Counted from the stretch's first letter, positions 2,329 to 23,950 are shown. The stretch is DNA of 45,276 nt from an uncultured Candidatus Woesearchaeota archaeon (GCA_903891505.1 CAITEO010000002.1:1-45276); one strand, 5' to 3'. Program-made: numbers and translations. Notes: generated by a model from the letters alone, not told the origin.

Positions 2329-3414
2329 ATGGGAGGAAAGGATCCAATACTAAAAGTAGATAATATTACGAAATCCTATGGACGAAAACAAGTCCTGAAC
2401 GGAATTTCTTTCGATGTTTACCCCGGAGAAACTCTCGGCCTCATAGGCACAAGCGGTTCCGGAAAGACAACTCTTCTTAACTGCATGATTGGCTTTGTAA
2501 CGCCCGATACGGGTGATGTAAAATTTAGGCAACCACGGCACGACGACAAAGTCGAGATTCCAGTGGAAGACAAACCAGAAAAAGATATTAAAGATGGAAA
2601 AGATAAGGAGAAGAAACTCGACGTAAAGCTTGAACTAGTAAAAGGATCAACTTACAAATCAGTCTACATCAGAGCTTCAAGGTTCAAACATGTCTATGGT
2701 TTTGCTTGCCAAGTGCCAAGCTTCTATGAAAAACTAACTGTTAAAGAAAACCTTCATTACTTTGGCGAACTATACGGCCTTTCACATGATGTGCTAAAGT
2801 CTAATGTTAATACATTATTGAAGCTGATGGATCTTGAAAATTCATCCTCTATTCTAGGTAAGAATCTCTCTGGAGGTATGGAAAGAAGACTTGACATTGC
2901 CTGTTCATTAATACACAATCCTCCTCTGTTAATACTTGATGAACCAACAGCTGATCTTGATCCTATTCTAAGAAAGAATATTTGGAACATAATAAAAAAA
3001 ATTAATCAGAAAGGAACAACAGTCATACTTTCAAGTCATCATTTGAATGAAATAGAAAGTTTGTGTGATAGAATAGCTATTTTGAAGGATGGTCAGATAA
3101 TTGCTCTTGGCACAGCAGATGAGCTTAAGAACAAATACTTGAAGCATAAGGAAGTTAGAATAGAATCATCTCCAGGAGATTATGAGAAACTAGGACCTTA
3201 TCTGCAGAAGAAATTCAAGAAAGAAATTGCAAGTTATGACATAAAAGGCGGAGAACTTATCTTGTTCTGCGAGAAACCGCAGGAGCTGCTAAACGATTTG
3301 GTAAATGCAATTGAGCAGGAGAAAGAAAAAATTCTTGAGTTAAAACTCGTTAAGCCTAGTCTTGATCAGGTATTCATAACACTCAACAAAAAAAATGAGG
3401 AGAAAAAAAGTTAG
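2329..3414 (+). CDS. ABC transporter ATP-binding protein
   Basis: Walker A GTSGSGKTT, Q-loop CQVPSFYEKLTV, signature LSGGMERRL, Walker B LLILDEPT and H-loop SSHHLNE are all present. An unusual ~60-aa K/D/E-rich insert lies between Walker A and the Q-loop, and there is a ~100-aa C-terminal extension. Confidence 0.9.
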   Translation: MGGKDPILKVDNITKSYGRKQVLNGISFDVYPGETLGLIGTSGSGKTTLLNCMIGFVTPDTGDVKFRQPRHDDKVEIPVEDKPEKDIKDGKDKEKKLDVKLELVKGSTYKSVYIRASRFKHVYGFACQVPSFYEKLTVKENLHYFGELYGLSHDVLKSNVNTLLKLMDLENSSSILGKNLSGGMERRLDIACSLIHNPPLLILDEPTADLDPILRKNIWNIIKKINQKGTTVILSSHHLNEIESLCDRIAILKDGQIIALGTADELKNKYLKHKEVRIESSPGDYEKLGPYLQKKFKKEIASYDIKGGELILFCEKPQELLNDLVNAIEQEKEKILELKLVKPSLDQVFITLNKKNEEKKS

Positions 3415-3445
3415 ACTAACAAAATTAAATTATTAGGTGCAACTC

Positions 3446-5404
3446 ATGAGTATGAAATGGACGAAAACACTAGGTAAGAACTTCAAGATTCTTGCGAGAT
3501 CAAAAGGATCAGCATTAATGGTACTTCTAGCTCCGTTGTTAATTGTCCTCATAATAGGTCTTAGTTTTGCAGGAAATAAAGAGAACACTACTCATGTAGG
3601 AATATACTTGAGTGATAACAACAATAATCTTACAAACAGGTTTATTACAAACCTCAATACGAGCGACAACACGCTTACAATATTCTCAACTTCAAATAGT
3701 TGCATAAATGCTATAAAAGAGGGAGTTGTAGTAACTTGCATAGTATTTCCGCAGAACTTCGCAATTGCAGACAACAAGACTAATCAAGTCGTATTTTATG
3801 TGGATGAATCAAGACTTAATCTTGTATACAAACTTATAGCTTCGCTCACAGTAAATGTAAATGTGGAGAGCACAGAGGTAAGTAAAGAGCTCACTCAGCA
3901 GTTGCTTTTCATAATGGATCAAACGAAGAAAGATGTTGATGATAGTGTGGCGCTCTCAGTTGGTATGAAAGCAAAGACGAGCAGTCTTGCTGGGAAGTCA
4001 GCAGATACAAAAACAAAAGTATCTAGCATGAATATGACCACTACTGCTGTAAATATGGCTACACTAAAACAAAATCTTAATAATGTTACAACTGATTATA
4101 ACAATCTAAAAAGCAGAGCAAGTAGTGTGCGTAGTGAAGGTTACTCTGTACTTGCTGACCTTAATATTACTTCAGGCGCACTTATGACTGCATTGCAAAA
4201 TCTAGATATTAGCTTAAGTGGGAATGATTCCACCGCTTCGACAAATGATTTTAACGCCTTAAATGATGCTATAAATAATTTGGCTACACAAGTTACAGCA
4301 ATGCAAAATCAGCTTGCAGAAGCAAAGAATGTGCAGTCAACAGTTTTATCAACGCTTAACTCGCTTAGCAGCGACATAACATCTCTCTCAACAGATCTTG
4401 ATAATCTGAAGATAAAACAGGAAGGAATAAGAACGAGAATAAACTCATTTAGTTTGAAGTCTGCTGAGAGTATTTCTCATCCTATTACAACAAAAGTTGA
4501 ATCTGTTGTCGCAAAGAACAACAAGATAACTTATTCATTCCCATATCTTTTGATGATGGTTGTTTTGTTCGTTGGAATAATGCTTTCAAGCACAATAGTA
4601 TTTATGGAGAAAGATTCAAGAGCGTTCTTTAGAAATTTCACAACTCCAACAAAGAGCGCGCATTTCATAATGATGAATTACTTTACATCATTTATTATAC
4701 TCGTTGCTCAATGTATAATAATACTTGCCGCAGTTTACTTTGGTTTGCATGTTCCTGCACTAACAAACATAGGTCTTACTACTCTATTCCTATTCTTAGG
4801 TATAACTGTTTTCATCCTTATAGGCATGATTGTTGGCAGCATATTTAGCACATCTGAAGCTATAACTATGAGCACTATTGCAATCGGCTCCGTACTTCTG
4901 TTCCTCTCCAATCTCATATTACCTCTTGAAACACTCTCGCCATTAATAGGACAGATAGCGAGGTTCAATCCATACGTCCTAGCGTCAGAAGGAATAAAGA
5001 AAGCAATGCTATTCCAATCCACATTTCAAGATCTTTATTTCGAGTTAATAGTTCTTGCTGCTTACTGTATAATACTTTTGATAATAGTTATCTCGATAAA
5101 GCGAATTATAACTTTGAAGTTCTTTGACAAAGTAATGAGAAGACGACATAAGATGGTATTCACAGTGCCTGAAGATCATTATTTGAGAATTGATGATAAG
5201 AACATCATAGTTAGAAGTGTTCCTGAACTTCTTGAAACATTAAAGCATATGAGCAATCATGATTACGCAACACTAACAAAACCAAACGTATTCACGAAGT
5301 GGCTGCGTGAAAGCTTGAATGAGAAGAGACTTGCTCTAAAACTTGAAGGAAAGAGCCTTGATAGTGCGATAAAAATACTTGAGAAATACGTCAAGAGCAA
5401 GTGA
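3446..5404 (+). CDS. ABC-2 type permease, YhgE/Pip-like architecture, with extra C-terminal cytoplasmic domain
   Basis: One N-terminal TM helix is followed by a ~330-aa S/T/N-rich coiled-coil-like extracellular region and 5 C-terminal TM helices. A soluble tail (PEDHYLRIDDKNIIVRSVPELLETLKHMSNHDY...FTKWLRESL) follows. The start is moved from the track GTG at 3437 to the ATG at 3446, because that GTG is part of an AGGTG SD 7 nt upstream of 3446. Confidence 0.75.
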   Translation: MSMKWTKTLGKNFKILARSKGSALMVLLAPLLIVLIIGLSFAGNKENTTHVGIYLSDNNNNLTNRFITNLNTSDNTLTIFSTSNSCINAIKEGVVVTCIVFPQNFAIADNKTNQVVFYVDESRLNLVYKLIASLTVNVNVESTEVSKELTQQLLFIMDQTKKDVDDSVALSVGMKAKTSSLAGKSADTKTKVSSMNMTTTAVNMATLKQNLNNVTTDYNNLKSRASSVRSEGYSVLADLNITSGALMTALQNLDISLSGNDSTASTNDFNALNDAINNLATQVTAMQNQLAEAKNVQSTVLSTLNSLSSDITSLSTDLDNLKIKQEGIRTRINSFSLKSAESISHPITTKVESVVAKNNKITYSFPYLLMMVVLFVGIMLSSTIVFMEKDSRAFFRNFTTPTKSAHFIMMNYFTSFIILVAQCIIILAAVYFGLHVPALTNIGLTTLFLFLGITVFILIGMIVGSIFSTSEAITMSTIAIGSVLLFLSNLILPLETLSPLIGQIARFNPYVLASEGIKKAMLFQSTFQDLYFELIVLAAYCIILLIIVISIKRIITLKFFDKVMRRRHKMVFTVPEDHYLRIDDKNIIVRSVPELLETLKHMSNHDYATLTKPNVFTKWLRESLNEKRLALKLEGKSLDSAIKILEKYVKSK

Positions 5405-5515: not shown

Positions 5516-6256
5516 ATGAACTGGATGGTAAACAAAAAAACTAACAAAAAACTAATTATGATTTTATTGACAATAATAACATTATTTGCGCTCAGCGCAG
5601 TGTTCGCCAGCGCGGATGTGATAGATCCGAATAGTAAAACTGTGCCTTTTTGCGCCAAAGTAATAAATCTTAACGATTACCCTGACTATTATTTTGTAAG
5701 TGTTGAAACTTATCCTGGTAGCAGAAGTATAGATGTTGGAAACATAATAACATCGGATGAATGCTTGGGAATAAAAGGATATAAATTTGATTCCTTAGAA
5801 ATTTATGCAATTAACAAATCATATGTTGACTCGATTGGAATTGATAATATTCCAACTATTAATGTATCATTTCCTGGTGAATGTGAGGGTGGCTGTTTCA
5901 AAGAAGAATTCTCACCTGAGAATGCGATGTTGCTTAACGAATCAGTAAATTTGGGATCTAGCTACTATGTAAAGAAGTCAAGCCCAATGCAAAAAATGGA
6001 TGTAGAATTGAAAGTTACAAAAATAGGAGAGGACTTCATCATATACACCTCGAAGACAACAATCAGCTACAAGAATGGTAAGACTGATGTAAAATTATTC
6101 GTTGCACCAACTACAATTCCGCCACTTCCAGCACAAATTAGCATTTTTACAGATCCTCTTACTTCTGAACAGCGGGGATATGGACAAGTAGTTTCAAGGA
6201 ACATCTTCCAGAATGTCGGTTGTTTCTTCAAGAAACTGTTCGGTGGAGCATGCTGA
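5516..6256 (+). CDS. secreted protein of unknown function (likely true start at ATG 5525)
   Basis: Signal-peptide-like N-terminus KKLIMILLTIITLFALSAVFASADV. No family was recognised. The C-terminus is CFFKKLFGGAC. Confidence 0.6.
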   Translation: MNWMVNKKTNKKLIMILLTIITLFALSAVFASADVIDPNSKTVPFCAKVINLNDYPDYYFVSVETYPGSRSIDVGNIITSDECLGIKGYKFDSLEIYAINKSYVDSIGIDNIPTINVSFPGECEGGCFKEEFSPENAMLLNESVNLGSSYYVKKSSPMQKMDVELKVTKIGEDFIIYTSKTTISYKNGKTDVKLFVAPTTIPPLPAQISIFTDPLTSEQRGYGQVVSRNIFQNVGCFFKKLFGGAC

Positions 6257-7869: not shown

Positions 7870-9039
7870 TTACAAATCCTCGTCGAGATCTTCGATGTCT
7901 TCTAGGGACATTAGTTCGTCATCGATGTCTTTGGGGCGCAGGTTTTCTTGTCGCTTAGGCACGTCTGGCTTCTTAGCATCCTGGAAGAATGTTTGCTGCG
8001 CTGCCTGCGCCGCAGGTTTCACCTGATTAGAATTTGAACTAGATGTTTGAGGAATTTCGTTTTCTATTCTCTTTATTTCTTCATCAGGATTTACTTCCCG
8101 AATTACAAAATTTGCAGTTAATTCGAGTCTGTTGAAAAGTGCGTTTTTTGTAACTCGGCCAATAATTTTTACGAGCATTCCGAGCAAATCCGTTTTTACC
8201 TGTTCGAAGAGTTCGAGATGATCTCTGTACTCGAGCAGTTGAGCTTCGTTTATACCAAGTAAGTTAAGGACTTGGTTTTTCCAAAGGACTGTTCGTATGT
8301 TTTCTGTACCGTCGTCAAGAAATATGTTAAGGACGCAGCTGTACGTGTACGCACCTGTCTCGTCTTCTTTCATCCTTTTTCCTGTTTCCTGATTTAACTT
8401 GAAGAATTTGATGTCAAATATTTGAACTATTGTTCCTAGAACCTCTATGTTTTGGTCGTTCTCAGTGAGCTCCTTAATTTTTTTTCTTTGCGCTTGAGGT
8501 CTCTGGAATTGAGCTTGTTGACTAGCTTCTGATACTGTTCCTTTCAACTCTACTCCTGCTGGGTTCACATCTATCGTACTAGAATCAGTAAGATGAAGTT
8601 CTATTTTTCCGTTGTTCTCCCTCGCCATCGCGCCTTTTACTTTTAGAATGTCTCCTTCTTTGAATGTGATTAATAAATCAGCTTTGTCGTTCCATAAAAC
8701 AATAAGAGTCGTACCTGTTTCATCGCCAATTAAGAACTTTGCAAGTTTTCCCTCTCGCTTTTCCGTCTTGAATTCCCTAACCTCATATTTCCTTATGGCT
8801 TTGCCGTCGAGCTCGAGGTTTCTCATGCCAACTAGAATGTTTTTTATCTTGACTACGCCCACAGGTTCTTGGAGTTTAACTCCGAGTTCATTCGCGACAA
8901 TGTGCGCCGCGCCTTCTTTACTTATTAAACCTGATAGCTGGTCTAATTTTTTCTTTATTCTAAAGTCAACTTCCTGCTCAGAAATACCTGCTTTTTCCAT
9001 TATTTTTTCTTTTATTGTCTCAAGTGGCAAGTTTATCAA
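7870..9039 (-). CDS. replication protein A-type ssDNA-binding protein (OB folds)
   Basis: The N-terminal region TIKEKIMEKAGISEQEVDFRIKKKLDQLSGLISKEGAAHIVANELGV resembles the N-terminus of euryarchaeal RPA large subunits. It is followed by OB-fold-like repeats and an acidic tail DDELMSLEDIEDLDEDL. TTG start with a GGGGGAT SD-like site upstream. Confidence 0.75.
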   Translation of the reverse strand: MINLPLETIKEKIMEKAGISEQEVDFRIKKKLDQLSGLISKEGAAHIVANELGVKLQEPVGVVKIKNILVGMRNLELDGKAIRKYEVREFKTEKREGKLAKFLIGDETGTTLIVLWNDKADLLITFKEGDILKVKGAMARENNGKIELHLTDSSTIDVNPAGVELKGTVSEASQQAQFQRPQAQRKKIKELTENDQNIEVLGTIVQIFDIKFFKLNQETGKRMKEDETGAYTYSCVLNIFLDDGTENIRTVLWKNQVLNLLGINEAQLLEYRDHLELFEQVKTDLLGMLVKIIGRVTKNALFNRLELTANFVIREVNPDEEIKRIENEIPQTSSSNSNQVKPAAQAAQQTFFQDAKKPDVPKRQENLRPKDIDDELMSLEDIEDLDEDL

Positions 9040-9240: not shown

Positions 9241-12114
9241 TCATATTTTCAATGCATACTTGAGTGTTCCTAGGGATTCGTCGCCGGTGAGAGAGGAGCA
9301 AATGTACATGTATTTCTGAGTTGGGATGCAAGCCTGCAGCGTATTATTTACTGCGTTCACCACAAGATTTCCTTTCACTGTGAACGTTTGTATTTTAGTC
9401 ATGTTTAATGTTATGAATGGCACAGATCCTAAAATATTTAATTGAGTGTCTATCACATCATCATTATCTACATCAGTTAATGTTTCGTTAGATATTTGCA
9501 CATTATTCAAAACTTTTGCTGATTTTATTGTACAGGTGCAGGCATCGCCAACACTCGCGCATTCTGTTAATGACTTTGCAAATCTAACCAATTCTTCATG
9601 GGCAATATCTGTTGGATTAGGTGAAATATCTTCGAAATTTTCGACAAATACTGCATTTGCCTCTTTGCTATAATTTACTTTTACAAGCACCTGATCATTT
9701 AGTTTTAGGAGTTGATTTGTCTTGTATAATTCGCTTTCTTCATTTTCATAATCTGTCCAAACTGACGCATTTGAGATTATTTTTATCACGAGTTCGCCAG
9801 TCGAATCTTTTATTTTTATTGTCGCGTTTGGATCTGCAAGAAGTTCGGCCAAAGTTATTTCTTTGTCATTAAATATTTGTGTTTGTACACCCTGAGTTTG
9901 CATCGCCTGATTCAAAGGTCCTTTTGCTCTCGTCTGTATATCTGTTATTTTTCCTAATAATAACCCTTTCTGGTCAGGCGCGAGCTTACTTGATATCTTT
10001 ACGTTATAATCAGAAATAGACATTATGTCGTCTTCTAATTCTTTGTCACATACACTAACTTTAAGTTCTGGGTCTTGCCCAGCAGATTGGATTTGGTTTG
10101 AGATGCAATTATCCTTCTCAGCACCTTGTTTTGTCGTGCACAAATTTATTGTTTGCTTAAAGAATTCTTTCGTGTTATCAAAAAGTTTTGTTACATTATA
10201 TATTCTTGTTTGAAATGAATATTTTGCCAAGTACGTTCCAGCTTCTGTCTCTACTGTATCTGATGTTCCTGAAAAGTCCTCGCTCGGCATCTGGAAATTT
10301 GAGTCTAGAACGCATACTTCTGCACGATCTTTTATTTGTGATTGAAATGCTTTTTCTTGAGTTTTTCCTGCGCCTCCATAAATATCTATGTGGTCACATG
10401 CAAGTGCTGAACCTGTGTCTTCGACAATATAGTATCCATTTTTACTATTTCCTTCTCCCCAATAAATGTATAATTTTGCGCCTCTTTTGAATCTTGAGTC
10501 ACATTTCGCCGCGACTGTTCTTCCAGGAATAGGATCTGTGCCCATAGCTGTTACTCCGTTTTTATGTCCTGAAATTGTTGGACTTTGAGTGGGACCAAGA
10601 GGACTTATAGTTTCTGCTTTGAATACTTGTCCATTCATTGATCCACTTCCTTGACATCTTACTGCAGGAAAGAATGAGTCTTGTTTTAGGCAGCATTGAT
10701 ATGATGTTCCACATGCACCACCTACAGACCAAATACCGAAGTCGTTGAAAAATGGAGTGTAATAAACTGTTGTTCTTATATTTTTGAAGCAGTTCTTCTC
10801 GTTTATATCAGCCGGTAGTCCTGCTGCTTTTGCGGTTATAATTTTTAGATCAGCGTTAGCTTCAGGATTTGTTGTCTTTGTGTCTACAATTACGTTTCCT
10901 GTTCCTGCATTGTTTCCATTTGTATTTCCATTCGCGTTCGTATTGCCCGTCCCGATGCTGCTTTGCATTTTGCTGAGTTTATCTTTCGCATCAGTTATTA
11001 TTTGGTTCTCGCTATTTTTTATATCTGAGGATGGATCTGTTCTGCTCGTATCTATTTCGCTATCTAAAAGAACTGTCTTCATTGAAAGATTTATTTCGTT
11101 CCTATTTGCTATTTCTGCAAGTAAATTCTTGAGCGCGGCAATTTGCTGTGGAAGATGTGCATGAGGTGCACTATTCAATAATGCCACAGATATCGCTGTT
11201 CTGTCTGCATCTTCATACATACAAGTCTTTGATGTGGATTTCAAGCAGTACGCGCTCTTCGTGTATCTTGATTCTGGGGTGAATAGAAATACTTTGCCGT
11301 TCTTGTCTATGATATAGTTGTAATTTCTCAGTCCTGTTTTTAATTCGTTGTATGTTTCTTCGATTGAACTCGTATCGGTATCATGAACTATTATTGTTGT
11401 AGGAACATCATTCTGTCTTCTTGCAAAAGATGCCAGTATAGAATATTTTCTTGCTACTTGATATCCGTCTTCATTTGTCACAACATCATCTATTGTTGTT
11501 CTTGCTGTTTTTGTTTTGTCAGCAACACTATAGTAAGACTCCACATATGCATAAACTGGTATGCCAAGATCCGTCAAAGATTGCACCCATATTTTCATGT
11601 TTCCATTTTCTTTCACAATAACTGTATCAAGTTCGTCAACATTTATCTTAAGAGGATCATATTTTAGAATTAGACTGTTCATATTTTTAATGAACTCTGA
11701 TTTGAACATCTGTTCATAATCTGGAAAACATTCATCAATGTTTTTCTGAGAATCTATTATAGGATATGTTAGTTTTCCGCAACCTGCATTCTGTATTTTT
11801 CCTTTGAACGTCTCCTCTGAATAACCTGATGCAGATATTGTTGAAGTTGCTGCTTCTTTGGCCGCAATATCTATTGATGCATCCATGTAAAAAAATACTC
11901 TTTCTGTCGCCTCGAATGTATTTATTATTTTTATAGGTGTTTCGCCCATATCTCCTACTTTAGAACTGAGATCGCTTACTCTAAATATGAGTATGGCTGC
12001 GAATATGAATCCTGCAAATAAAAATAATAACAGAGTAATATTTCCTTTCTTCCCGATTACTTTTGAACCAAACAATCTTTTTGTTTGTTCTTTTGTGTTT
12101 ATTCTTTTTTTCAT
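9241..12114 (-). CDS. pilin-like-anchored surface protein with amidase_2-like and 3D (MltA/RlpA-like) peptidoglycan-lytic domains
   Basis: N-terminus GKKGN-ITLLLFLFAGFIFAAILIF. Residues ~236-362 read TTIIVHDTDTSSIEETYNEL...NYNYIIDKNGKVFLFTPESRY...AISVALLN (amidase_2-like). Residues ~445-582 read GRTVAAKCDSRFKRGAKLYIYWGEGNSKNGYYIVEDTGSALACDHIDIYGG (three-Asp 3D domain). Confidence 0.8.
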   Translation of the reverse strand: MKKRINTKEQTKRLFGSKVIGKKGNITLLLFLFAGFIFAAILIFRVSDLSSKVGDMGETPIKIINTFEATERVFFYMDASIDIAAKEAATSTISASGYSEETFKGKIQNAGCGKLTYPIIDSQKNIDECFPDYEQMFKSEFIKNMNSLILKYDPLKINVDELDTVIVKENGNMKIWVQSLTDLGIPVYAYVESYYSVADKTKTARTTIDDVVTNEDGYQVARKYSILASFARRQNDVPTTIIVHDTDTSSIEETYNELKTGLRNYNYIIDKNGKVFLFTPESRYTKSAYCLKSTSKTCMYEDADRTAISVALLNSAPHAHLPQQIAALKNLLAEIANRNEINLSMKTVLLDSEIDTSRTDPSSDIKNSENQIITDAKDKLSKMQSSIGTGNTNANGNTNGNNAGTGNVIVDTKTTNPEANADLKIITAKAAGLPADINEKNCFKNIRTTVYYTPFFNDFGIWSVGGACGTSYQCCLKQDSFFPAVRCQGSGSMNGQVFKAETISPLGPTQSPTISGHKNGVTAMGTDPIPGRTVAAKCDSRFKRGAKLYIYWGEGNSKNGYYIVEDTGSALACDHIDIYGGAGKTQEKAFQSQIKDRAEVCVLDSNFQMPSEDFSGTSDTVETEAGTYLAKYSFQTRIYNVTKLFDNTKEFFKQTINLCTTKQGAEKDNCISNQIQSAGQDPELKVSVCDKELEDDIMSISDYNVKISSKLAPDQKGLLLGKITDIQTRAKGPLNQAMQTQGVQTQIFNDKEITLAELLADPNATIKIKDSTGELVIKIISNASVWTDYENEESELYKTNQLLKLNDQVLVKVNYSKEANAVFVENFEDISPNPTDIAHEELVRFAKSLTECASVGDACTCTIKSAKVLNNVQISNETLTDVDNDDVIDTQLNILGSVPFITLNMTKIQTFTVKGNLVVNAVNNTLQACIPTQKYMYICSSLTGDESLGTLKYALKI

Positions 12115-12256
12115 CGTTTGTTTTATCTCGCATTTTGTTATTTATTTTTTGTTTATCTTATCTTTTCTTATCATTTGTATGTTTTGTCTTAGCTTTTCGG
12201 CACCATTATTTTATTTTATATTCTCATTATTTTATTATCTGTTGCTCAATTCTCAT

Positions 12257-13429
12257 CTAATTAGGAAATGAACAAACTTTTATTCCTGCTGATCTTTTCT
12301 CCTCTGTTTTTCCCCATTGGAATGAACCATATTCAAAGTGCCAGGTTTCTTTTTTCCATCGTACAAATCCCGCATCGCACATAATGCTTTCTGCAAGAGC
12401 TAAATTTGTTCCGCCCGCACCATTTAGCTTTGTTCCATCTTTTGTGTATAATATAGCATCGACTGCAGTCCCATCTAAATGTCCTGATGGATTTGTGAGC
12501 TTGTCCGGATTTCTTGCGAAACGGCAATCGTTATTGCTGCAATCACATCCTTCTTTGCACGCTTTTTCATAAAGCGCCATTTGAATTTCTTTTGTTCTAT
12601 ATGCTTGAGTTATTACAAGTTTCATTTCTTTTGGTCGAAGTTCTGTTTCAGAGATATTTTTAAGTCTATCTACAAGCGCAGGCGTAGCATAACATATTTT
12701 TCCAACAGTCGTGTCTGTTTCATCACAAACAACGTTTGGGATATTTTCTATTTTTACAAGCTGCTCCCCGTTCGGAGAAATTGGCCCTGTTCCGCTAGAC
12801 TCGTAGCCCTTAAGCAGCCCTGCTTTGTATCCGAAAACTCTCGGTTGTCGTTTATCCATATCTGTTGCTAATTTAAAGACGACGAGTTTGTTTTTTCCAT
12901 CTGGATTCGGCACTGTTGTTTTTGGTAATTTGTCTATTGTTCCCGGGTCACAAGAATCTACGGAAACAGGAATTGAAATGAATGGCATAACACTCACCAC
13001 TACTCCTACTGTCGCTTTAGAATTTTGTGTGCCTGTTGAAGTGAGTAAATAGCACTTATCATCCACAATAACTAACCATGTGTCTGTCATTCTGCCATCA
13101 GGATAGAATTTTGAAAGTGCGACCACTAATTGCTCGTTGAATGACGCCATACCTGCGTCTGTAGTTATATCTGCATCCGCGACAAGATTGTATACTTTGT
13201 AACCTGCGCGTACATCTTGATCAAGCACCATTCTTGTCGAGAAGAATCCGCCGGCTACATTTATGTCGCTAGTGATTTTGTCTTGCTGATTCTTAAGACC
13301 TGTATAGAGAAAGACGAGCAAAACTCCGAAAATAATCAAGAACCCTATACCTACTAGGAACAAAGATGCGAAATCTTCAAATTGCCCTTTTTTATTCAAG
13401 ATTATTTTATTCAACTTGGTTTTGCTCAC
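12257..13429 (-). CDS. pilin-like-anchored M15 (VanY/LAS-type) peptidoglycan peptidase
   Basis: N-terminus NKKGQ-FEDFASLFLVGIGFLIIFGVLLVF. The C-terminal domain is LVITQAYRTKEIQMALYEK...NPSGHLDGTAVD (exact SxHxxGxAxD, nt 12458-12488)...ETWHFEY (nt 12329-12343). GTG start with a GGAGAT SD upstream. Confidence 0.8.
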   Translation of the reverse strand: MSKTKLNKIILNKKGQFEDFASLFLVGIGFLIIFGVLLVFLYTGLKNQQDKITSDINVAGGFFSTRMVLDQDVRAGYKVYNLVADADITTDAGMASFNEQLVVALSKFYPDGRMTDTWLVIVDDKCYLLTSTGTQNSKATVGVVVSVMPFISIPVSVDSCDPGTIDKLPKTTVPNPDGKNKLVVFKLATDMDKRQPRVFGYKAGLLKGYESSGTGPISPNGEQLVKIENIPNVVCDETDTTVGKICYATPALVDRLKNISETELRPKEMKLVITQAYRTKEIQMALYEKACKEGCDCSNNDCRFARNPDKLTNPSGHLDGTAVDAILYTKDGTKLNGAGGTNLALAESIMCDAGFVRWKKETWHFEYGSFQWGKTEEKRSAGIKVCSFPN

Positions 13430-13578
13430 TATTATTTTATCTCCTATGCTTATTTTTTTATTATTTTATGTCTTATTATTTTTTGGTTTGATGGTATTTT
13501 GTTTTATTTTATCTCTTTTTCTCTATTTTTTCTACTCTTTTTTTCTCAATTTAATATTTAGTTTAATTTTTAGTTTAA

Positions 13579-14073
13579 TTAATCGCTTCCTGCTTTATGA
13601 AAAAAAGTCAGTATAGCTGGTCTTTCTAACCCATGATCATATACATAAACGAAGTATTTTGTCATTGTAACTTTCTGCGCGTTTAATCCCCAATTTTGAG
13701 ATTCTATGAAATCTACATATTGCATATTGCTAGTGTTCATTCTTATTTCTGCAGCCATTGCATGTTTCGCCGTACCTACTAGCGGAACACATTCCCTAAG
13801 AACTTGCTCATTAAATCTTTCAATATCTATAACTCCTGTGTATACTCGTCCCGTGTCGTCTTTATACGCAAAACAATTAGGAGAATAAAGAACTCTTGCT
13901 TCGTAGACTGTTGGTTCTACATTATTATTGACAAATATTTGTCTGAGTGATGCTGTCCAAGCTACGGCTATAGCTACAATTAGACCTATAAAAATAAGCA
14001 TTATTATCCAGAATAAGCCCTTATCCGCCTCGCTTATTAATCCTTTTTTGTTGATTTTTATTGCTCGTCCCAT
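13579..14073 (-). CDS. class III signal (pilin-like) protein, unknown mature domain
   Basis: N-terminus NKKGL-ISEADKGLFWIIMLIFIGLIVAIAVA, with a GAGGA SD upstream. Confidence 0.6.
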   Translation of the reverse strand: MGRAIKINKKGLISEADKGLFWIIMLIFIGLIVAIAVAWTASLRQIFVNNNVEPTVYEARVLYSPNCFAYKDDTGRVYTGVIDIERFNEQVLRECVPLVGTAKHAMAAEIRMNTSNMQYVDFIESQNWGLNAQKVTMTKYFVYVYDHGLERPAILTFFHKAGSD

Positions 14074-14147
14074 TTGTCCTCATACAATATTATTATTCTA
14101 CTCGTCGTAAGATCTTTTTAGATCTTATCAAATATTCTTCAAATCTT

Positions 14148-15062
14148 TTAGTTAGTTAATCCTTGATTTATTGCGTCAAAGAGCTCCTTTGAAATCTGCG
14201 ATGTCAATCTTACTGAGTTATCTTTTGAAAGATTAATATACTTCTCAGCAGGCCCGAATACAACTTTTATTTCTTGTTTACTTGACGCAATCATTTGTAT
14301 TGATTTAAATTGATCTGCGTGATTTAATTGAATTGTTCTTTGCATATAACATGCAATTCTTTTGCTCCACGCGGTGTTAAGTGGATGCTGCGGATCTTCA
14401 TAATAATAAATGTTAATCCCCTCTGTTTGTGATGTTCCGAATGAAAATATGAACGCATCATTTGTTGTACTTGCATCATTTTGATCTAAGTAAGCAACTT
14501 TTGTATTTGGATCATATCTTGCTTTTGAATTAAGCGTAGTTGCAAGCAATTGAAGATATGTCTTTGCTTCTCCTGATTCGTCTGACTGTACGAAAAATCT
14601 GACTGCCATTTTTGAATTTGCATTGTTAAATGTTTGTGGAATGCTCACGCAATTATCTGTAAAGCTAACATCTTCATTCGTGAATTTTAATGTAGAATCT
14701 TTCAACGACATTGGTATTGACAGCGTGTTTTGTATTATTGCTGCAGTAATAGTTATTCCCCTCATAGAAAAGTAAGGATATCTTCCTGCTCCATCTTTTG
14801 AAATTATGATAACCTCATCTGGGGTTATCTGAACTTTGTATTGTTCAGTATTTTTTTCATAATTGTAGGCTATATCATATGGCGCAGCAGATATAGTCAT
14901 GATTGAAAGCGCGAAATCCTTGGACATTACTTGTTCAGTCGAACCAAACATGAGTTTGGGAACAGATATGATAAGAATAACCATTATTGAAACTCCGACA
15001 ACGAGCTCTGCTATAGTATAGAGCATACTTCTTGTCGCATCAACCCCTTTCTTATTCATCAT
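14148..15062 (-). CDS. class III signal (pilin-like) protein, unknown mature domain
   Basis: N-terminus MMNKKGV-DATRSMLYTIAELVVGVSIMVILIISV. The YTIAELVV stretch is reminiscent of the bacterial FTLIEL pilin helix. The ATG at 15062 is preferred over the track TTG at 15065. GGAAGGGG SD upstream. Confidence 0.65.
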   Translation of the reverse strand: MMNKKGVDATRSMLYTIAELVVGVSIMVILIISVPKLMFGSTEQVMSKDFALSIMTISAAPYDIAYNYEKNTEQYKVQITPDEVIIISKDGAGRYPYFSMRGITITAAIIQNTLSIPMSLKDSTLKFTNEDVSFTDNCVSIPQTFNNANSKMAVRFFVQSDESGEAKTYLQLLATTLNSKARYDPNTKVAYLDQNDASTTNDAFIFSFGTSQTEGINIYYYEDPQHPLNTAWSKRIACYMQRTIQLNHADQFKSIQMIASSKQEIKVVFGPAEKYINLSKDNSVRLTSQISKELFDAINQGLTN

Positions 15063-15148
15063 CAAAAACCCCTTCCATCTCGTCCAATATTAATATAATT
15101 TCTCTAACGTTTTTCTGAATTTGTTTCTCTAAATTTATTCCTTTAAAT

Positions 15149-15922
15149 TCAGTAATTCTTTAGGCACTCATCTGTAAAGCATAATTTTATTGTGTTATCA
15201 GGATTTTTAACAACGTAAACATCAGCATAGCTTGTCACAAACATATATTTATATCCTGTATAGCCAATTTCTTGAGCAGCTGTCGGATTTTTGTAGTATC
15301 TCCAAAAAGACATTCCTCCTTGCCATCTGTAAACGTAACTGTTGTCTCCAAGATGAAGCTCTGAATCTTTAGTCTCATCCACCCCTGCTCTTTTTTTGAG
15401 CGCTTCGTAATTTGTAGAATCCATTATTTTTTCAAGAAAAGTATTTTCCTGAAAATCCACATCACTAATATTTGTGCATTCTATTTTTTTCTCACAGTTC
15501 AATGTTGTAGCGAGGGTTCCTGTATTTTTATATGTCGTGTTTGAGAATCCTGGTGAATACTCTGTGCATAAACATATGCATGTATTTCCGACAGGAGGAC
15601 AATCTACGGGACGAGGCACGTATCTTTTGTATCCGCTGGGAAATATTTCTATTACTTCTTCTGCGTTTTTGTTGAAAACGTAAATCGCGGTTCCTTCGTC
15701 GAGAGTTACGCTAACCAGCTTCATCTTTATGTTGCCACTTTTGTTTGCAACTTCGTGCATTGCAGCAATAAGTGCGTTTGTACTCTCATCAGACGCTTTG
15801 TGCGATTTTAGTGCTTTTGATATTGCGCTAAACGTGATTAGAAAAAGAAAAATAAATACTACTAATCCAATGATGAATGTTAACATCACTCCTTCTGCTG
15901 CTTTTCTGTTCATCTTTCTCAT
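15149..15922 (-). CDS. class III signal (pilin-like) protein, Cys-containing mature domain
   Basis: N-terminus NRKAA-EGVMLTFIIGLVVFIFLFLITF. Its ATG overlaps the upstream stop (ATGA), indicating translational coupling. Confidence 0.6.
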   Translation of the reverse strand: MRKMNRKAAEGVMLTFIIGLVVFIFLFLITFSAISKALKSHKASDESTNALIAAMHEVANKSGNIKMKLVSVTLDEGTAIYVFNKNAEEVIEIFPSGYKRYVPRPVDCPPVGNTCICLCTEYSPGFSNTTYKNTGTLATTLNCEKKIECTNISDVDFQENTFLEKIMDSTNYEALKKRAGVDETKDSELHLGDNSYVYRWQGGMSFWRYYKNPTAAQEIGYTGYKYMFVTSYADVYVVKNPDNTIKLCFTDECLKNY

Positions 15923-16446
15923 GGTCCAGTAGTTTTAGTTTTATCTGCTGCTGCAGGAGGTATGTTTTGTACCAAATCACAAGGTGTTTGTCCTGGATGA
16001 GCATCTATTTCGCCGAAGAAATTCAAATCACTTTTCATAAGATACCTACAATCAGGACCTGTATAAAGACATCGTCCTGGTCCTACTGCGCTCTGGCTCC
16101 AGATAAACATCTCTTTTTTTATGTTGTCTTTCATTGCAATGTTTGCAGCGATATTCGCCTTATTATTTGCGCAACCACATGTTTTTTGGTCGAATGATGC
16201 TACGCAGTATTCGCCGCCACTTGCACCTATTATTTTATCGTTGTCATAACCACATTGACATGGATCTAACGGATTTGTTTTTCCATCTCCGTCAAAATCT
16301 CCGTTTTCCAAATACGCACCGAATGCATCTCCTCCAGAGATGTATTTTGGATAAATTACGAATATAAAAAACAAGAGAAGCATACCTAATATCACAATCG
16401 TCATTAAGATTTTTAGCCCCATAGATATTGATCCTTTTTTATTCAT
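15919..16446 (-). CDS. class III signal (pilin-like) protein with Ca-binding-like DxDxDG motif
   Basis: The start is reset to the ATG at 16446 (MNKKGS-ISMGLKILMTIVILGMLLLFFIF) because a perfect GGAGGT SD lies 6 nt upstream. The mature part contains DGDFDGDGKTNPLDPCQC. Confidence 0.65.
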   Translation of the reverse strand: MNKKGSISMGLKILMTIVILGMLLLFFIFVIYPKYISGGDAFGAYLENGDFDGDGKTNPLDPCQCGYDNDKIIGASGGEYCVASFDQKTCGCANNKANIAANIAMKDNIKKEMFIWSQSAVGPGRCLYTGPDCRYLMKSDLNFFGEIDAHPGQTPCDLVQNIPPAAADKTKTTGP

Positions 16447-16512
16447 TTTATTACCTCCAAATATGATTTTCACGATCCGTTGTTATCTTATTATTTACTA
16501 TTCTAAGTTTAA

Positions 16513-17757
16513 TCATGGACAATCTTTGAAATTCTTTGATAACTCTGCATAGTTTGTTGCTTTTGCTTTTTGATAATAATTGCAACTTTCTGTTGTGTAT
16601 GAACAATATGTCTTGCCGCCAGACGTAAATTTAGATACTGCCTGGTCAGATGTGAAATCTGTCTTCGATGTTTCCTTGTATTTTGCATTTGAAACTGATG
16701 CAAGGCATTCGCAGTTTGTTAATGCAGCTTCGAATGAACAACGACCCCCTCCTGTTGAAGTGCCTCCGCAAGGACATTGCTGCGCATTTGCTTGGGTCGT
16801 TTGTCCTCCTTTGCAGATGTATTTTTGATCTAGTAGTTTGTTGTCAAAGTTAGATTTTAGTGTTCTTGCGCCTCCTGCTCTGTTGAAGCAATCAACATCC
16901 ACGTATTGATTATTTTTCGGATCATCACCCGCGTATGTGTTAGCCTGCGAGTCTGGATTGTTACAAGTTATGCCTGTGAGTCCTGCATTATTAGCTGGGA
17001 AGAAGCACATGTATGCCTGTCCATTTGGCTCTGATATTTTCATCACATAGAGTATTGTTTTATCTCCATTTTTGAATGCAGTGTGCCAAAAATATTTATT
17101 TTCTAACATATATCCAATTTGTTTCTCATTACTATCTTTCTTCGAGGAAGAAAATAGTATTGATGGAACAGGTGTCGGGCTTATACTTTTGATATCTGGA
17201 TCGGGTAAAATTGAAGACCTATCATTGAATTGTTTGTAGAAAGAATTTACAACACTTGCACCCATTATAACACATGGTTGAGCATTAGTTATTGTAACCG
17301 CTGAAACAGGAGTATCTACTCCTTGCGTTTTCATATCCTGTGTATCCAAGCTTTTTGATTCTGTTAGTCTAATTAGCATATCAGATCCTGATTTGTCGAA
17401 ATAAAGATTGAAATTATAATCGTAAAATCCACTCTGATCCATTGCGGGCAATTCAACAAAACAGAAGTCTTGATCTTTTGATGCAGCAGCAGTCGATATT
17501 GCTTTGCTCACTCCGTCAAAGAATGACATTTGCGCATCCATATTCTTATGGAAGTCCATCTGATTTTGTGTAGCATCCACTTCAGGCACTCCTCTTATCG
17601 CAGTGCGTATCTTATCAAATGCTTTTGGAATTAAACCATTGCCATAAAATATGAACACCATTAAAATTAAAAATCCTACAAGTATTATTATTGTAATCAA
17701 TGTGCCAAGTCCGGCACTATCTTCTCCTTTCCTACCTATTTTTCTTAGTTTTTTCAT
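16513..17757 (-). CDS. class III signal (pilin-like) protein, large Cys-rich mature domain
   Basis: N-terminus GRKGE-DSAGLGTLITIIILVGFLILMVFIF, paralogous at the N-terminus to 17975-19375. Confidence 0.65.
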   Translation of the reverse strand: MKKLRKIGRKGEDSAGLGTLITIIILVGFLILMVFIFYGNGLIPKAFDKIRTAIRGVPEVDATQNQMDFHKNMDAQMSFFDGVSKAISTAAASKDQDFCFVELPAMDQSGFYDYNFNLYFDKSGSDMLIRLTESKSLDTQDMKTQGVDTPVSAVTITNAQPCVIMGASVVNSFYKQFNDRSSILPDPDIKSISPTPVPSILFSSSKKDSNEKQIGYMLENKYFWHTAFKNGDKTILYVMKISEPNGQAYMCFFPANNAGLTGITCNNPDSQANTYAGDDPKNNQYVDVDCFNRAGGARTLKSNFDNKLLDQKYICKGGQTTQANAQQCPCGGTSTGGGRCSFEAALTNCECLASVSNAKYKETSKTDFTSDQAVSKFTSGGKTYCSYTTESCNYYQKAKATNYAELSKNFKDCP

Positions 17758-17768
17758 GATGTTCTACT

Positions 17769-17972
17769 TCATTCATTTCCAAATATGCTGTTGACTAAAA
17801 AGTTGGAATCTGAGTTTAAAAGTATTATATATGTTGCGACGATCGCGAGCAATATGGCTATAAGTATTATTCTAATTAAAGTTGATTTTATGAGTCCTTT
17901 TCGTCCGAGGCCACGAGATCTATGAACGCTCGTCAAACAACGTACTATGCATATGATTCTGTTGAAATCCAT
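17769..17972 (-). CDS. mini pilin-like protein (67 aa)
   Basis: The ATG at 17972 lies 2 nt after the upstream stop. GRKGL-IKSTLIRIILIAILLAIVATYIILL is followed by only ~17 further residues. Confidence 0.4.
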   Translation of the reverse strand: MDFNRIICIVRCLTSVHRSRGLGRKGLIKSTLIRIILIAILLAIVATYIILLNSDSNFLVNSIFGNE

Positions 17973-17974
17973 AA

Positions 17975-19375
17975 TTAAACCACCTGCGTGCACTCATTGC
18001 CTACTGAGTTAACATCTGTTATTAAAACCATTTGAGGACGATCGACAGTAAGCTTTTGTTTAAACCAATTCAAGAAACTTAAAGGATCGTCGTCAGGAGT
18101 ATCATATATAAAATTTAACGCCTTATATATTGGTCTCCAAGTGGCACTAAATCTCTCATCAGACACTCCAACGTATGCAATTACGTATGTGTGTTCTGTT
18201 CTGATGTTGTCAACAACAGGCCACGTTTGACCTTCGTTTGAAAGATAGTAATAATATGACTTCGGACTAACTCCGGGAATCGCATTCGCGCCTCCAAGCA
18301 TTTTTCTAGATATATCCCTGATTGATAATCTTGTGGCTTCGCCAATCGCTTTTTTTACGCATGCAGAATCGGAACAATCTGCTGCAGTTTTTTCTGCAAC
18401 TTGGAATCTACTCTCCAAAATCTGGTTGATGTCATAGTCTTTTATGAACACAGAAAGATCTGATCCGACATGAACTCGTATTTTATGATTTTTTAAATCT
18501 ACCATCACGAGAAGTGCATCATATGTTGATTCGTTCGTGTTGATGTGTGCATCTTCTATTATTCCTCTTGCATCGCTTGGATCCATCGCGCTGAATTCAT
18601 CCGCAGTTATTAAAAGAAGATTTGCTACATGCCCCTTTTGAAGATTTATTCCTGCCTGCTCTATTTCATCCTTTTGATCTTGTGTTAGAGTAAATCCATA
18701 ATCCATTATATAACCTGATGCAAGTTTCGCATCTATTTTTGATGGCTTTATTACTCGGTCATTATCTCCTATGCCTGCATCTGCTTTGAAGTCATAAATC
18801 GCGCCATAATAGTTCTTTGTTCCGCCACCATATATTATGGCTGGATTATACGCTTTGGACGCCAGATAGTTTATCATCTCCGGCGCAGAAATGTTGTTGC
18901 TCTCTCTTTTTATGGGCTCGTTTAGAAATTTAATCGGAGTTGCTGTTCCATCATCAAGTTTTCCTGATACGGTGAATGTGTAGCAGACAAAACATGCCTT
19001 TTCTTCTCTTTCTACTTTGAATATATCCTGCACAGACCCCTCAGCGAACTGCCACCAACACCGTGCTGCGCGATCTGCTATTTGTTTTTTTATTCCTTCT
19101 CTATCTCCTTTCAAAGTTCCTAATTTCTTTGTCTTGCAAACAATAGGAGTTAGTTTCTCCATGTCTGCAACTCCTGTCATTAAAGTTATTGTCGCCTTTC
19201 CTCTTAGAATAACACTCGCTCGACAAAGAGTGTTTTGAGTAGCCTCATCTGATCTTGATGCGATGAGAACAATCGTTCCTATGATTGCTATTAACACAAG
19301 TATCGCTATGATCATAGTTGCAAGAGTACCTATGGTCGCATCCTCTCCTTTCCTCGAGCCTATAAATCTCTTCAT
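17975..19375 (-). CDS. class III signal (pilin-like) protein with TPM-like domain
   Basis: N-terminus SRKGE-DATIGTLATMIIAILVLIAIIGTIVLI. The internal segment YIMDYGFTLTQDQKDEIEQAG...NLLLITADEF...YDALLVMVDLKNHKIRVHVGSDLSVFIKDYDINQIL resembles the TPM (TLP18.3/Psb32/MOLO-1) fold pattern; this is inference. Confidence 0.65.
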   Translation of the reverse strand: MKRFIGSRKGEDATIGTLATMIIAILVLIAIIGTIVLIASRSDEATQNTLCRASVILRGKATITLMTGVADMEKLTPIVCKTKKLGTLKGDREGIKKQIADRAARCWWQFAEGSVQDIFKVEREEKACFVCYTFTVSGKLDDGTATPIKFLNEPIKRESNNISAPEMINYLASKAYNPAIIYGGGTKNYYGAIYDFKADAGIGDNDRVIKPSKIDAKLASGYIMDYGFTLTQDQKDEIEQAGINLQKGHVANLLLITADEFSAMDPSDARGIIEDAHINTNESTYDALLVMVDLKNHKIRVHVGSDLSVFIKDYDINQILESRFQVAEKTAADCSDSACVKKAIGEATRLSIRDISRKMLGGANAIPGVSPKSYYYYLSNEGQTWPVVDNIRTEHTYVIAYVGVSDERFSATWRPIYKALNFIYDTPDDDPLSFLNWFKQKLTVDRPQMVLITDVNSVGNECTQVV

Positions 19376-19449
19376 GTGTTCCTCTAAATACTCTCTAAAT
19401 ATACACTATGATTCCTGAATTGAATGTTAAATGACCTTTTTTGATATTG

Positions 19450-19572
19450 TTAAACAATTTTGTATATTAAATAAACGCCATACATAAGCAACAAAAATAG
19501 CACAACAAATAAGATGGAAATAATCAACGTTTTTGTCATTGATTTTTCCTCTCCTTTTCTAGATAGCGCCAT
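19450..19572 (-). CDS. 40-aa mini pilin-like peptide (not in the ORF track)
   Basis: Translation MALSRKGEEKSMTKTLIISILFVVLFLLLMYGVYLIYKIV*. It has the same SRKGE motif as the next gene. A consensus TATA box has its centre 26.5 nt upstream of its ATG, and an oligo-T terminator of the preceding unit lies upstream. Confidence 0.45.
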   Translation of the reverse strand: MALSRKGEEKSMTKTLIISILFVVLFLLLMYGVYLIYKIV

Positions 19573-19594
19573 AGCTAATCATCCTCTATTTTAC

Positions 19595-19602
19595 TATATA
19601 AA
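19595..19602 (-). promoter_or_regulatory. TATA box (TTTATATA on minus strand) for the leaderless mini-pilin ORF
   Basis: The plus strand reads tatataaa. The box centre is 26.5 nt upstream of the ATG at 19572. Confidence 0.5.
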
Positions 19603-19681
19603 TGTTTGTATGGATTGCTCTTGAAAAATAGAATAAATACTACCCTTACGAAAACTAAGAAGAAAATTTACTTGAACCGTT

Positions 19682-19697
19682 AAAAAAAACCAAAAAA
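19682..19697 (-). terminator. oligo-T terminator (T6 GG T8 on minus strand) after the 402-aa pilin-like gene
   Basis: The plus strand has A8 (19682-19689) and A6 (19692-19697), 63-78 nt downstream of the stop at 19760. This marks an internal transcription-unit boundary in the cluster. Confidence 0.5.
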
Positions 19698-19759
19698 CAA
19701 ATCCAGAAAATGCAAACCGCGTATTATCAAAATGAACATTATATTATGACTTGCTTACG

Positions 19760-20968: not shown

Positions 20969-20985
20969 AATTCAGCCCCTAAAAC

Positions 20986-21231
20986 TCAGCCCATCGGATT
21001 ACAACAAGTTTCTGCCGCATTTGAGCAAGTTACTGTCGAGCCGTCTGAAGGAATTATTTGGTTTCCGCTGGAACATACTTTGCATATTCCTCCTTTGAGC
21101 CCACAGGATGTTCCCTGATTGGCACCGTTGCTGCTCTTTGTAATCAAGAATACAAGTATAACGAGTATTATTATTGCTATGACTACCATTATTATCATGT
21201 TTATGCTCATTTCTCCTTTCTTTGGATTCAT
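20986..21231 (-). CDS. small Cys-rich pilin-like protein (candidate major subunit), paralog A
   Basis: MNPKKGE-MSINMIIMVVIAIIILVILVFLI, then a 6-Cys headpiece C-x6-C-x2-C-x15-C-x6-CC. A GAGGT SD lies 8 nt upstream. Confidence 0.7.
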   Translation of the reverse strand: MNPKKGEMSINMIIMVVIAIIILVILVFLITKSSNGANQGTSCGLKGGICKVCSSGNQIIPSDGSTVTCSNAAETCCNPMG

Positions 21232-21272
21232 CGTTCATACCTCGAATACATTTATTCTATTCAAGTAAGCAT

Positions 21273-22750: not shown

Positions 22751-22821
22751 GTCGTGTTTTTTTGTTCATTGTGCATATTTTTATATTTTCTTTGCATCAT
22801 ATTATGCTTGTGACATCTCAT

Positions 22822-23949: not shown

Positions 23950-23950
23950 T

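Follow-up and report, generated by a model that had tools for sequence, protein, structure and literature searches.

A predicted murein-active surface protein at the end of a pilin-like gene run in a Woesearchaeota archaeon

What would an archaeon do with an enzyme built for bacterial cell walls? Archaea, to our knowledge, are devoid of murein. The gene that raises this question lies at positions 9241-12114, on the minus strand, of a 45,276-nucleotide stretch from an uncultured Candidatus Woesearchaeota archaeon (GCA_903891505.1, CAITEO010000002.1:1-45276), the whole of which is here called the window. It is a complete gene, stop codon included, for a protein of 957 residues, in which a first-pass annotation of the DNA had recognized an Amidase_2-like module and a 3D (MltA/RlpA-like) module behind a pilin-type anchor. 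Both modules match their Pfam families (PF01510 and PF06725) above the curated thresholds, and both an amidase fold and an MltA-like double-psi beta-barrel are seen in AlphaFold models. The original observation is confirmed by these matches, at a level well above chance. On balance, the sequence and the models favor a multidomain enzyme of a DPANN archaeon, extracytoplasmic and anchored by its N terminus, with bacterial peptidoglycan as its substrate.

The archaeal origin of the gene, already assumed when the DNA was first annotated, is borne out by its surroundings and its relatives. The host is a DPANN archaeon of the Woesearchaeota/Nanoarchaeia type, since the window encodes archaeal proteins (among them an RPA-like OB-fold protein with an archaeal DUF2240 segment and helix-turn-helix (HTH) proteins of the TFIIE-alpha/HVO type), syntenic loci from Candidatus Woesearchaeota archaeon carry the proteasome beta subunit and aCPSF1, and a close homologue (P0004, MGV8163001.1) comes from a Candidatus Nanoarchaeia archaeon, where it bears the automatic name N-acetylmuramoyl-L-alanine amidase.

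Domain architecture and the two murein-directed modules

The gene and the segments of its product are arranged as follows, from the N terminus to the C terminus of the protein:

9241-12114, minus strand: complete open reading frame of 957 residues, predicted murein-active multidomain surface protein
12043-12114, minus strand: basic leader, residues 1-24, with KKG at its end; G24 is a putative class III (prepilin-type) cleavage site
11983-12042, minus strand: hydrophobic helix, residues 25-44, found in sequence and model; membrane anchor or pilin-like alpha-1 helix
11419-11970, minus strand: conserved N-domain, residues 49-232, without known family, with the motif GE.......E..E....Y.D.S
11032-11406, minus strand: Amidase_2-fold domain, residues 237-361, with H244, Y265, and D360 kept and D351 in place of the second zinc-ligand His
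10894-10953, minus strand: flexible linker rich in Asn, Gly, and Thr, residues 388-407, of different length in different homologues
10339-10797, minus strand: MltA/YuiC-type double-psi beta-barrel (3D) domain, residues 440-592, with D577, D566, and K537
10015-10338, minus strand: conserved Cys-containing middle domain, residues 593-700, which accompanies the 3D domain in relatives
9244-9834, minus strand: conserved beta-rich, Cys-containing C-terminal domain, residues 761-957, with an invariant ALKI end

All the peptides quoted in the first-pass annotation are present in the translation, at the residues and nucleotides assigned to them there. Thus, GKKGN and the hydrophobic stretch span residues 21-44, IIVHDT residues 241-246, LLDSEIDTSRTDP residues 349-361, the Asn/Gly/Thr linker residues 388-407, TTVYYTPFF residues 448-456, and VEDTGSA...CDHIDIY residues 564-579.

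The 3D domain is likely to be the active module of the protein, a lytic transglycosylase, because both its catalytic and its sugar-binding aspartate are kept; this assignment draws on alignment and on a structure model. The Pfam match covers residues 543-588, with an E-value of 1.9e-5 and 25.2 bits (cutoff 23.8). Structures were predicted from alignments of relatives, and the protein was modelled in two halves, residues 1-375 and residues 430-957. In the second of them the barrel reaches a predicted local distance difference test score (pLDDT) of about 85-95, and the best Foldseek match is MltA (2gae, E-value 5.7e-5), followed by LtgG (6qk4) and other MltA structures, with YuiC placed lower. 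The matched MltA proteins of N. gonorrhoeae and A. baumannii superpose at 3.6-4.2 Å over 84-97 columns. Residues of the domain were assigned by aligning a five-sequence profile to YuiC and by adopting the residue roles given in PMC4499186, where YuiC D162 (MltA D308) is the catalytic carboxylate, YuiC D151 (MltA D297) is a ligand of the -2 sugar, and YuiC D129 (MltA D261) is the third Asp. D577 takes the catalytic position (Asp in 84/91 related proteins) and D566 that of the sugar ligand (Asp in 90/91). The remaining position, the first in canonical order, is occupied by Asn in 52 relatives, Asp in 24, and Lys in 4, and in the 957-residue protein another aspartate, D539, follows two residues downstream of it. 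The three-aspartate motif originally read in this domain is hence present in two of its residues, D566 and D577, while the first canonical Asp is replaced by K537.

The Amidase_2-fold domain presents a different picture, that of an intact fold around an altered site. Its Pfam match spans residues 237-361 (E-value 1.4e-9, 38.8 bits, cutoff 26). The model of residues 1-375 (pLDDT 77.7, predicted template modelling score 0.73) has 38 Foldseek matches in the PDB at E-values of 1e-3 or less, and among the matches listed all are of the Amidase_2 fold. The best one is AmpD (2y28, E-value 1.9e-6), and the endolysins XlyA, PlyL, and PlyG are found together with PGRPs; the match to XlyA (3hmb) has a TM-score of 0.69 on the archaeal protein. 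Confidence within the domain is mostly 84-96 in pLDDT, falling to about 51 in the block 291-300 and below 50 at residues 292-297. At the level of sequence profiles, the match to AmpDh3 in the PDB is weak (E-value 2.2).

The zinc site of this family consists of His, His, and Cys or Asp, and it is incomplete here. The ligands were placed by an AmpDh3 profile alignment and by hmmalign with AmpD. The first His is H244 and the third ligand, of the AmpD type, is D360, whereas the second His is replaced by D351. The earlier reading had located the first His and noted the absence of the second, and in both respects it holds; it had also taken the Asp of RTDP as aberrant, and this part does not stand, since D360 is the normal Asp ligand of AmpD-type enzymes. 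E353 is also kept and Y265 is present, apparently as the counterpart of the catalytic Tyr (T7 Y46); the position of the catalytic Lys (T7 K128, AmpD K162) appears to align with T359, with R358 adjacent. The SYHY and HAG motifs are altered.

Among 57 related domains, the pattern H...SYHY...H.E...K.DP dominates. The second His is kept in most stand-alone relatives, and stand-alone proteins consisting of N-domain and amidase domain keep the canonical zinc site, but Asp, Asn, Val, or Tyr takes the place of this His in 11 of the 14 proteins in which the domain is fused with a 3D domain. The four closest homologues have Asp or Asn at the position of D351; Asn is found in P0003-P0006 and in the homologues of loci L002 and L003, and Val or Tyr in distant fusions. 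The L003 homologue has additionally lost the first His, which is Gln. Despite this degeneracy the domain is conserved, with a column identity among five homologues of 63%, compared to 68% for the 3D region, which argues for a retained, non-catalytic function. The amidase-like domain is probably, as far as its sequence tells, a PGRP-like module for wall recognition that leaves catalysis to the 3D domain. The initial caveat that it might be a binding module was well founded.

The rest of the protein points to the outside of the cell. The protein contains a single hydrophobic helix, at the N terminus, and in the model of residues 1-375 one long helix runs over residues 22-53. All of its 20 cysteines lie C-terminal to the helix, and 20/20 are invariant in a three-sequence alignment (A1), which fits an extracytoplasmic, disulfide-bonded ectodomain. 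These data agree with the N-terminally anchored topology proposed at the outset. The N-domain (residues 49-232) has no Pfam match, and the C-terminal domain (residues 761-957) gives weak OB/HIN-like fold matches only in Foldseek.

The relatives appear, from their sequences, to form a polymorphic family of multi-enzyme murein hydrolases. The whole protein has no match by phmmer in the PDB and none in a scan against NCBIfam. A word-indexed homologue search retrieved three proteins with the full sequence and one with a 23-sequence alignment, at which point it was saturated, whereas an exhaustive profile search yielded 292 relatives at E-values of 0.001 or less and revealed a modular family. A scan of metagenome contigs added only a duplicate of L003, and no relative was found in the IMG/VR viral contigs. 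In six homologues scanned with Pfam, Amidase_2 is present in all (31-49 bits); the 3D domain is above its cutoff in P0002, L003, and P0009 (38-41 bits in some), below it in P0003 (22.8 bits) and L002 (18.0 bits), and absent from the matches listed for P0013. Some longer proteins of the family, built on the same chassis of anchor, N-domain, and Amidase_2 (P0048, P0061, P0070, P0091, P0094, and P0140) carry SLT, Peptidase_M23, NlpC/P60, or GDSL modules; the 957-residue protein itself has no Pfam match to an SLT/GH23 domain.

An SGNH/GDSL esterase-like insert is also observed closer to the protein, after the middle domain in P0003 and P0004 and between the amidase and 3D domains in the homologue L003:9920-13528. 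In L003 it matches Lipase_GDSL_2 below the cutoff (E-value 2.7e-4), and in P0003 and P0004 it is recognized by a GDS motif in the aligned sequence. The two different positions suggest independent acquisitions, and the insert may be a peptidoglycan O-acetylesterase.

The N-terminal anchor and the pilin-like gene run

The protein begins with a short basic leader and a [KR][GA] motif, after which comes a hydrophobic helix some 20 residues long (GKKG, then NITLLLFLFAGFIFAAILIF). K23 and G24 are invariant in homologues. Judging by its sequence, this N terminus resembles the class III (prepilin) signals of archaea. A [KR][GA] motif with a hydrophobic stretch is found in 42 of 55 relatives that have the N-domain, in contrast to 4 of 51 that have the 3D domain only, so that the KKG-type N terminus goes with the chassis and not with the enzyme module.

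The same motif recurs in the genes around it. Fourteen consecutive annotated genes (9241-24502) have [KR][KR][GA] immediately ahead of a hydrophobic stretch, compared with 0/9 genes on the other side; two small genes within the run, which fell below the 100-aa and 120-aa cutoffs of the open reading frame listings, raise the total to 16 consecutive genes, of which the 957-residue protein is the last. The members of the run other than this protein are:

12257-13429, minus strand: VanY/M15 (LAS-type) peptidoglycan peptidase-like neighbour of 390 residues, directly upstream
13579-24502, minus strand: fourteen further genes with [KR][KR][GA] and hydrophobic N-termini, a putative pilin/pseudopilin operon with its order kept in loci L001, L002, and L003
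20986-21231 and 21273-21548, minus strand: among these fourteen, two small candidate major-pilin genes, of 81 residues and of about 82 residues counted from an internal Met

Both small proteins start with MKKG, followed by [DE]MSI, a hydrophobic helix, and a small Cys-rich tail, which is the layout of a short major pilin. L001 and L003 have both of them in the corresponding place, with 49-58% identity. Several upstream genes show the classical form of the motif, in which [KR][GA] is followed by Q, and two other window proteins (5516-6256 and 24538-27843) have ordinary Sec-type signals. Ten genes (p402, the TPM protein, p414, p184, p257, p305, p164, the M15-like peptidase, the 957-residue protein, and the RPA-like gene) are colinear in three independent loci, L001, L002, and L003, with protein identities of 25-50%. 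Searches for pilin families covered the 957-residue protein, the N-termini of ten locus proteins, and the two small proteins in the case of Pfam, and seven proteins in the case of NCBIfam. With the N-terminal peptides of 70-80 residues and the two small proteins, Pfam returned transmembrane-like noise and no pilin family. The description of the protein as pilin-anchored is based on motif and gene context, and not on a pilin or class III profile or on assembly genes in the window.

The product of the adjacent gene (12257-13429) starts with NKKG and a hydrophobic stretch and carries its peptidase-like domain at the C terminus. The domain has an invariant QxYR motif, H317-x6-D324, and WH364FEY, with R278, H317, D324, and H364 invariant. 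Its profile matches the L-Ala-D-Glu peptidase Ply500 (E-value 0.0015) and the carboxypeptidase YodJ/LdcB (E-value 0.0023), while Pfam and NCBIfam matches are sub-threshold. Matches of this protein to epimerases, obtained by phmmer against the PDB, are spurious, and a profile search is needed to place it.

Other features of the locus can be described besides these. The only known domain in the run 13579-24502 is that of the TPM protein (17975-19375), which is also the most conserved sizeable operon protein with homologues in other loci (about 50% identity). Upstream and on the same strand (24538-42836, minus strand), four giant predicted surface proteins of 1101, 1263, 1053, and 1889 residues are encoded, which may be adhesins. 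The one at 24538-27843 has, in addition to its Sec signal, a match to bacterial TSP3 repeats, a sub-threshold Big_13 (Ig-like) match, and a C-terminal transmembrane helix; the 1053- and 1889-residue proteins have [KR]G and hydrophobic N-termini, and the four are otherwise almost devoid of Pfam matches. In all relatives, the locus has as neighbours an RPA-like single-strand-binding protein (7870-9039, minus strand; 62-68% identity) and an ABC-2 transporter pair (2329-5404, plus strand; 58-75% identity). Both are useful as synteny anchors, and a functional link to the hydrolase is not evident.

At the right end of the window, a Bro-N domain protein (43075-43920, minus strand) and a protein with HTH and nucleotidyltransferase domains (44149-44574, minus strand) may belong to mobile elements or toxin-antitoxin-type systems, and MazE-like and AbiEii-like genes are close to the operon in L001. 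Locus L002 (CAZOPU010000014.1) is labelled as an uncultured Methanosarcinales archaeon, yet it is colinear with the Woesearchaeota locus and shares with it the operon, the RPA-like gene, the ABC transporter, and the proteasome subunit, so that the label is probably due to mis-binning or mislabelling. The window contains no tRNA gene according to a tRNA scan, and a scan for sigma-70 promoters and intrinsic terminators, which does not apply to archaea, gave counts at the level of shuffled controls.

Proposed mode of action and competing explanations

Bacterial peptidoglycan is the proposed target because every added module is that of a bacterial-wall enzyme and because the reactions need N-acetylmuramic acid (MurNAc) and D-amino acids. 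Pseudomurein contains neither of them, and it is rejected as a substrate on account of its chemistry and of the VanY/M15-type partner. In the proposed mechanism, the pre-protein would be cut after KKG (G24) by a peptidase of the prepilin type whose gene lies elsewhere in the genome. The hydrophobic helix would then keep the protein membrane-bound or let it enter, as a minor or tip subunit, a type-IV-pilus-like filament built by the upstream genes. The degenerate amidase domain would bind the MurNAc-peptide part of murein, as non-catalytic PGRPs do, and the 3D domain, past its flexible linker, would cleave the bond between MurNAc and N-acetylglucosamine as a lytic transglycosylase, generating 1,6-anhydroMurNAc ends. 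With the neighbouring peptidase trimming or cutting stem peptides, both proteins may open the bacterial sacculus locally, at the site of contact with a host or prey bacterium.

In its most far-reaching form, this proposal sees in the 16 genes a locus for a type-IV-pilus-like filament in which murein hydrolases (the 957-residue protein and the M15-like peptidase) serve as minor or tip subunits and drill the wall of a bacterial host, which we regard as a speculative and rather unlikely outcome; the pilus-borne delivery suggested from the start, as a way to breach a bacterial partner, is something we infer. Several observations weigh against the proposal as a whole. No pilin or class III model of Pfam or NCBIfam matched the protein or the scanned proteins of the locus, and no secretion or assembly ATPase, platform protein, or prepilin peptidase is encoded in the window or in the flanks that were fetched. 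The Pfam score of the 3D domain is barely over its cutoff, its profile match to YuiC in the PDB is marginal (E-value 0.04), and Lys replaces the first canonical Asp at K537. D351 might still bind metal, in which case the amidase domain could be active. Finally, the outer membrane of a Gram-negative host would separate the enzyme from its murein.

Since assembly genes are lacking in the window and flanks, the N terminus could be a plain, uncleaved signal anchor that holds a type II membrane protein on the archaeal membrane, with no pilus or pseudopilus involved. Pilin profiles are unmatched, as this explanation would have it, and the positive-inside rule predicts basic residues ahead of the membrane helix in any such anchor. 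Against it, [KR][KR]G/A stands right where the helix begins in 16 consecutive and otherwise unrelated proteins, two of which are small, are laid out as MKKG[DE] in the manner of major pilins, and recur in other loci. The Sec-type signals of the same window look different, and class III signals on non-pilin surface proteins of archaea are established (10.64898/2026.04.22.720090). A plain anchor is a serious possibility, although we lean against it. A different question is whether the amidase domain, using D351 as a metal ligand, is itself catalytic; the protein would then be a bifunctional hydrolase that strips stem peptides and cuts glycan strands. The fold is intact, the domain is conserved, H244, Y265, E353, and D360 are kept, and the stand-alone relatives have a full canonical site; against this, the Asn of P0003-P0006, L002, and L003 and the Val or Tyr of distant fusions would be poor zinc ligands at the position of D351, the L003 homologue has Gln for the first His, and the HAG and SYHY motifs are altered. 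We consider bifunctionality unlikely, and a recognition module remains the preferred assignment for the domain.

As for the purpose of the enzyme, it might scavenge murein debris (necromass) for nutrients rather than attack living cells. Passages of PMC9723730 describe the reliance of DPANN archaea on salvaged compounds, and an ABC transporter is encoded nearby and in synteny. That transporter is of the ABC-2 exporter type, though, and is divergently transcribed, with the RPA-like gene between it and the hydrolase; no genes for muropeptide uptake or catabolism are seen in the window, and the enzyme is anchored rather than freely secreted, and encoded in an adhesin- and pilin-like operon beside giant surface proteins, all of which makes scavenging a doubtful explanation. 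In bacteria, a lytic transglycosylase of their own is often encoded in type IV pilus and secretion loci, and the place of the gene in a pilin-like operon could likewise indicate remodelling of the archaeon's own envelope, for instance for the passage of a pilus. This is very improbable in an organism that belongs to a domain without murein and shows no Mur-type synthesis genes in the window: the formation of 1,6-anhydroMurNAc needs MurNAc, and the VanY/M15-like partner, as well as the SLT, M23, and NlpC/P60 modules of the relatives, all target peptidoglycan of the bacterial type. An origin as a viral or prophage endolysin, or as a tail-associated lysin of an integrated element, is brought to mind by the Amidase_2 and M15 domains, which are common in phage lysins, and by the Bro-N protein encoded 31 kb away. 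It can hardly be entertained when the IMG/VR viral contigs hold no relative that was found, no capsid, terminase, or integrase genes are detected in the window, and the RPA-like and ABC transporter genes remain syntenic across loci just 36-49% identical.

Relation to known systems and significance

With MltA from E. coli (GH102) and YuiC from B. subtilis (Sps), the 957-residue protein shares the double-psi beta-barrel, the catalytic and substrate-binding aspartates, and the DTGSA motif. It differs from them by K537 in place of the first Asp, by an extra Cys-rich insert (F..V[KR]CQGSG), and by the fusion of the 3D domain to an amidase-like domain and to two further C-terminal domains without known function; it is also archaeal and has a class-III-like anchor rather than a lipobox or Sec signal. 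The amidase-like domain, in turn, has the same fold, first His, and AmpD-type Asp ligand as AmpD, T7 lysozyme, PlyL, and XlyA, and apparently the catalytic Tyr, although it is placed between a novel N-domain and a lytic transglycosylase. Receptor-type, non-catalytic PGRPs are similar to it in keeping the fold with one zinc ligand missing; they typically lose the Cys, whereas here the second His has been lost to Asp or Asn.

The idea of wall-cutting enzymes in archaea is not new. Extracellular murein-lytic proteins of Woesearchaeota and Pacearchaeota, for use on bacterial hosts, are described in passages of PMC8204110 and PMC9723730: Castelle et al. (2021) suggested bacterial hosts (PMC8204110), and Vigneron et al. 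(2022) proposed a 'vampiristic' lifestyle on the basis of GH23 transglycosylases and pore-forming toxins (PMC9723730). A 2024 study repeated the observation. The SLT-type murein transglycosylases of DPANN archaea have the same lineage and proposed role as the 957-residue protein, which is to bind and degrade the walls of bacterial hosts or prey, and SLT is found in distant chassis relatives of that protein; the protein itself uses a 3D/MltA-type module in place of SLT/GH23. The passages of both papers that a term search returned do not mention a class-III-like anchor, a pilin-like operon, or a paired M15-like peptidase.

The anchor and the enzymatic cargo have each been reported in other contexts. 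A 2026 preprint (10.64898/2026.04.22.720090) describes class III signals on functional, non-pilin surface proteins of archaea, which have a basic leader, a [KR]G/A site, a hydrophobic helix, and a large functional ectodomain, as the protein studied here does. Their cargo is a solute-binding protein instead of a wall-degrading enzyme, and they are encoded beside their own uptake transporter instead of in a pilin-like operon; the words 'peptidoglycan' and 'hydrolase' are absent from that preprint. The use of an MltA-type enzyme by one microbe on the wall of another, as proposed here, is known from Bd3285 of Bdellovibrio bacteriovorus, which, according to passages of PMC10127604, belongs to a bacterial predator and is secreted into the prey, and has neither an amidase-like module nor a pilin-like anchor. 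A 2025 study (PMC12352652) reports, in the parts drawn on here, that secreted haloarchaeal peptidoglycan hydrolases kill bacteria. Woldo and Danwoldo from Halogranum combine murein-binding and murein-cleaving modules in an archaeal protein, as the 957-residue protein does, but they have Tat signals and are released into the medium. The survey in the same work considered Sec and Tat signals, one or the other of which was present in 32% of archaeal hydrolases. PF06725 is not found in the supplementary text files of that study that were examined, some of them in truncated form, and the present architecture appears, on this basis, to have been missed by its survey.

What the locus adds to this known concept is a 3D/MltA-type module, a degenerate amidase module, and a paired M15-like peptidase, as well as a prepilin-like chassis shared by a polymorphic hydrolase family and a position at the end of a conserved pilin-like operon. 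Surveys limited to Sec and Tat signals and standard binding domains appear to miss enzymes of this type. The case leads to predictions that can be tested, including D577 as the catalytic residue, G24 as the cleavage site, the binding module, and the association with a filament.

These observations are in line with an idea already put forward, that of such archaea living on bacteria or preying on them. Bacterial rather than archaeal hosts for Woesearchaeota and Pacearchaeota have so far been argued mainly from genes for SLT-type murein transglycosylases, and the locus contributes a second, independent murein-directed set (3D/MltA-type, amidase-fold, and VanY/M15-like), to which the relatives add M23, NlpC/P60, and GDSL modules. 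It also offers a sequence signature by which DPANN lineages with a likely bacterial association could be found. The importance of the finding would be high only if the filament association and the bacterial host were shown; should that be the case, an enzymatically armed pilus would constitute a concrete molecular mechanism for the episymbiosis of an archaeon on a bacterium, or for its predation.

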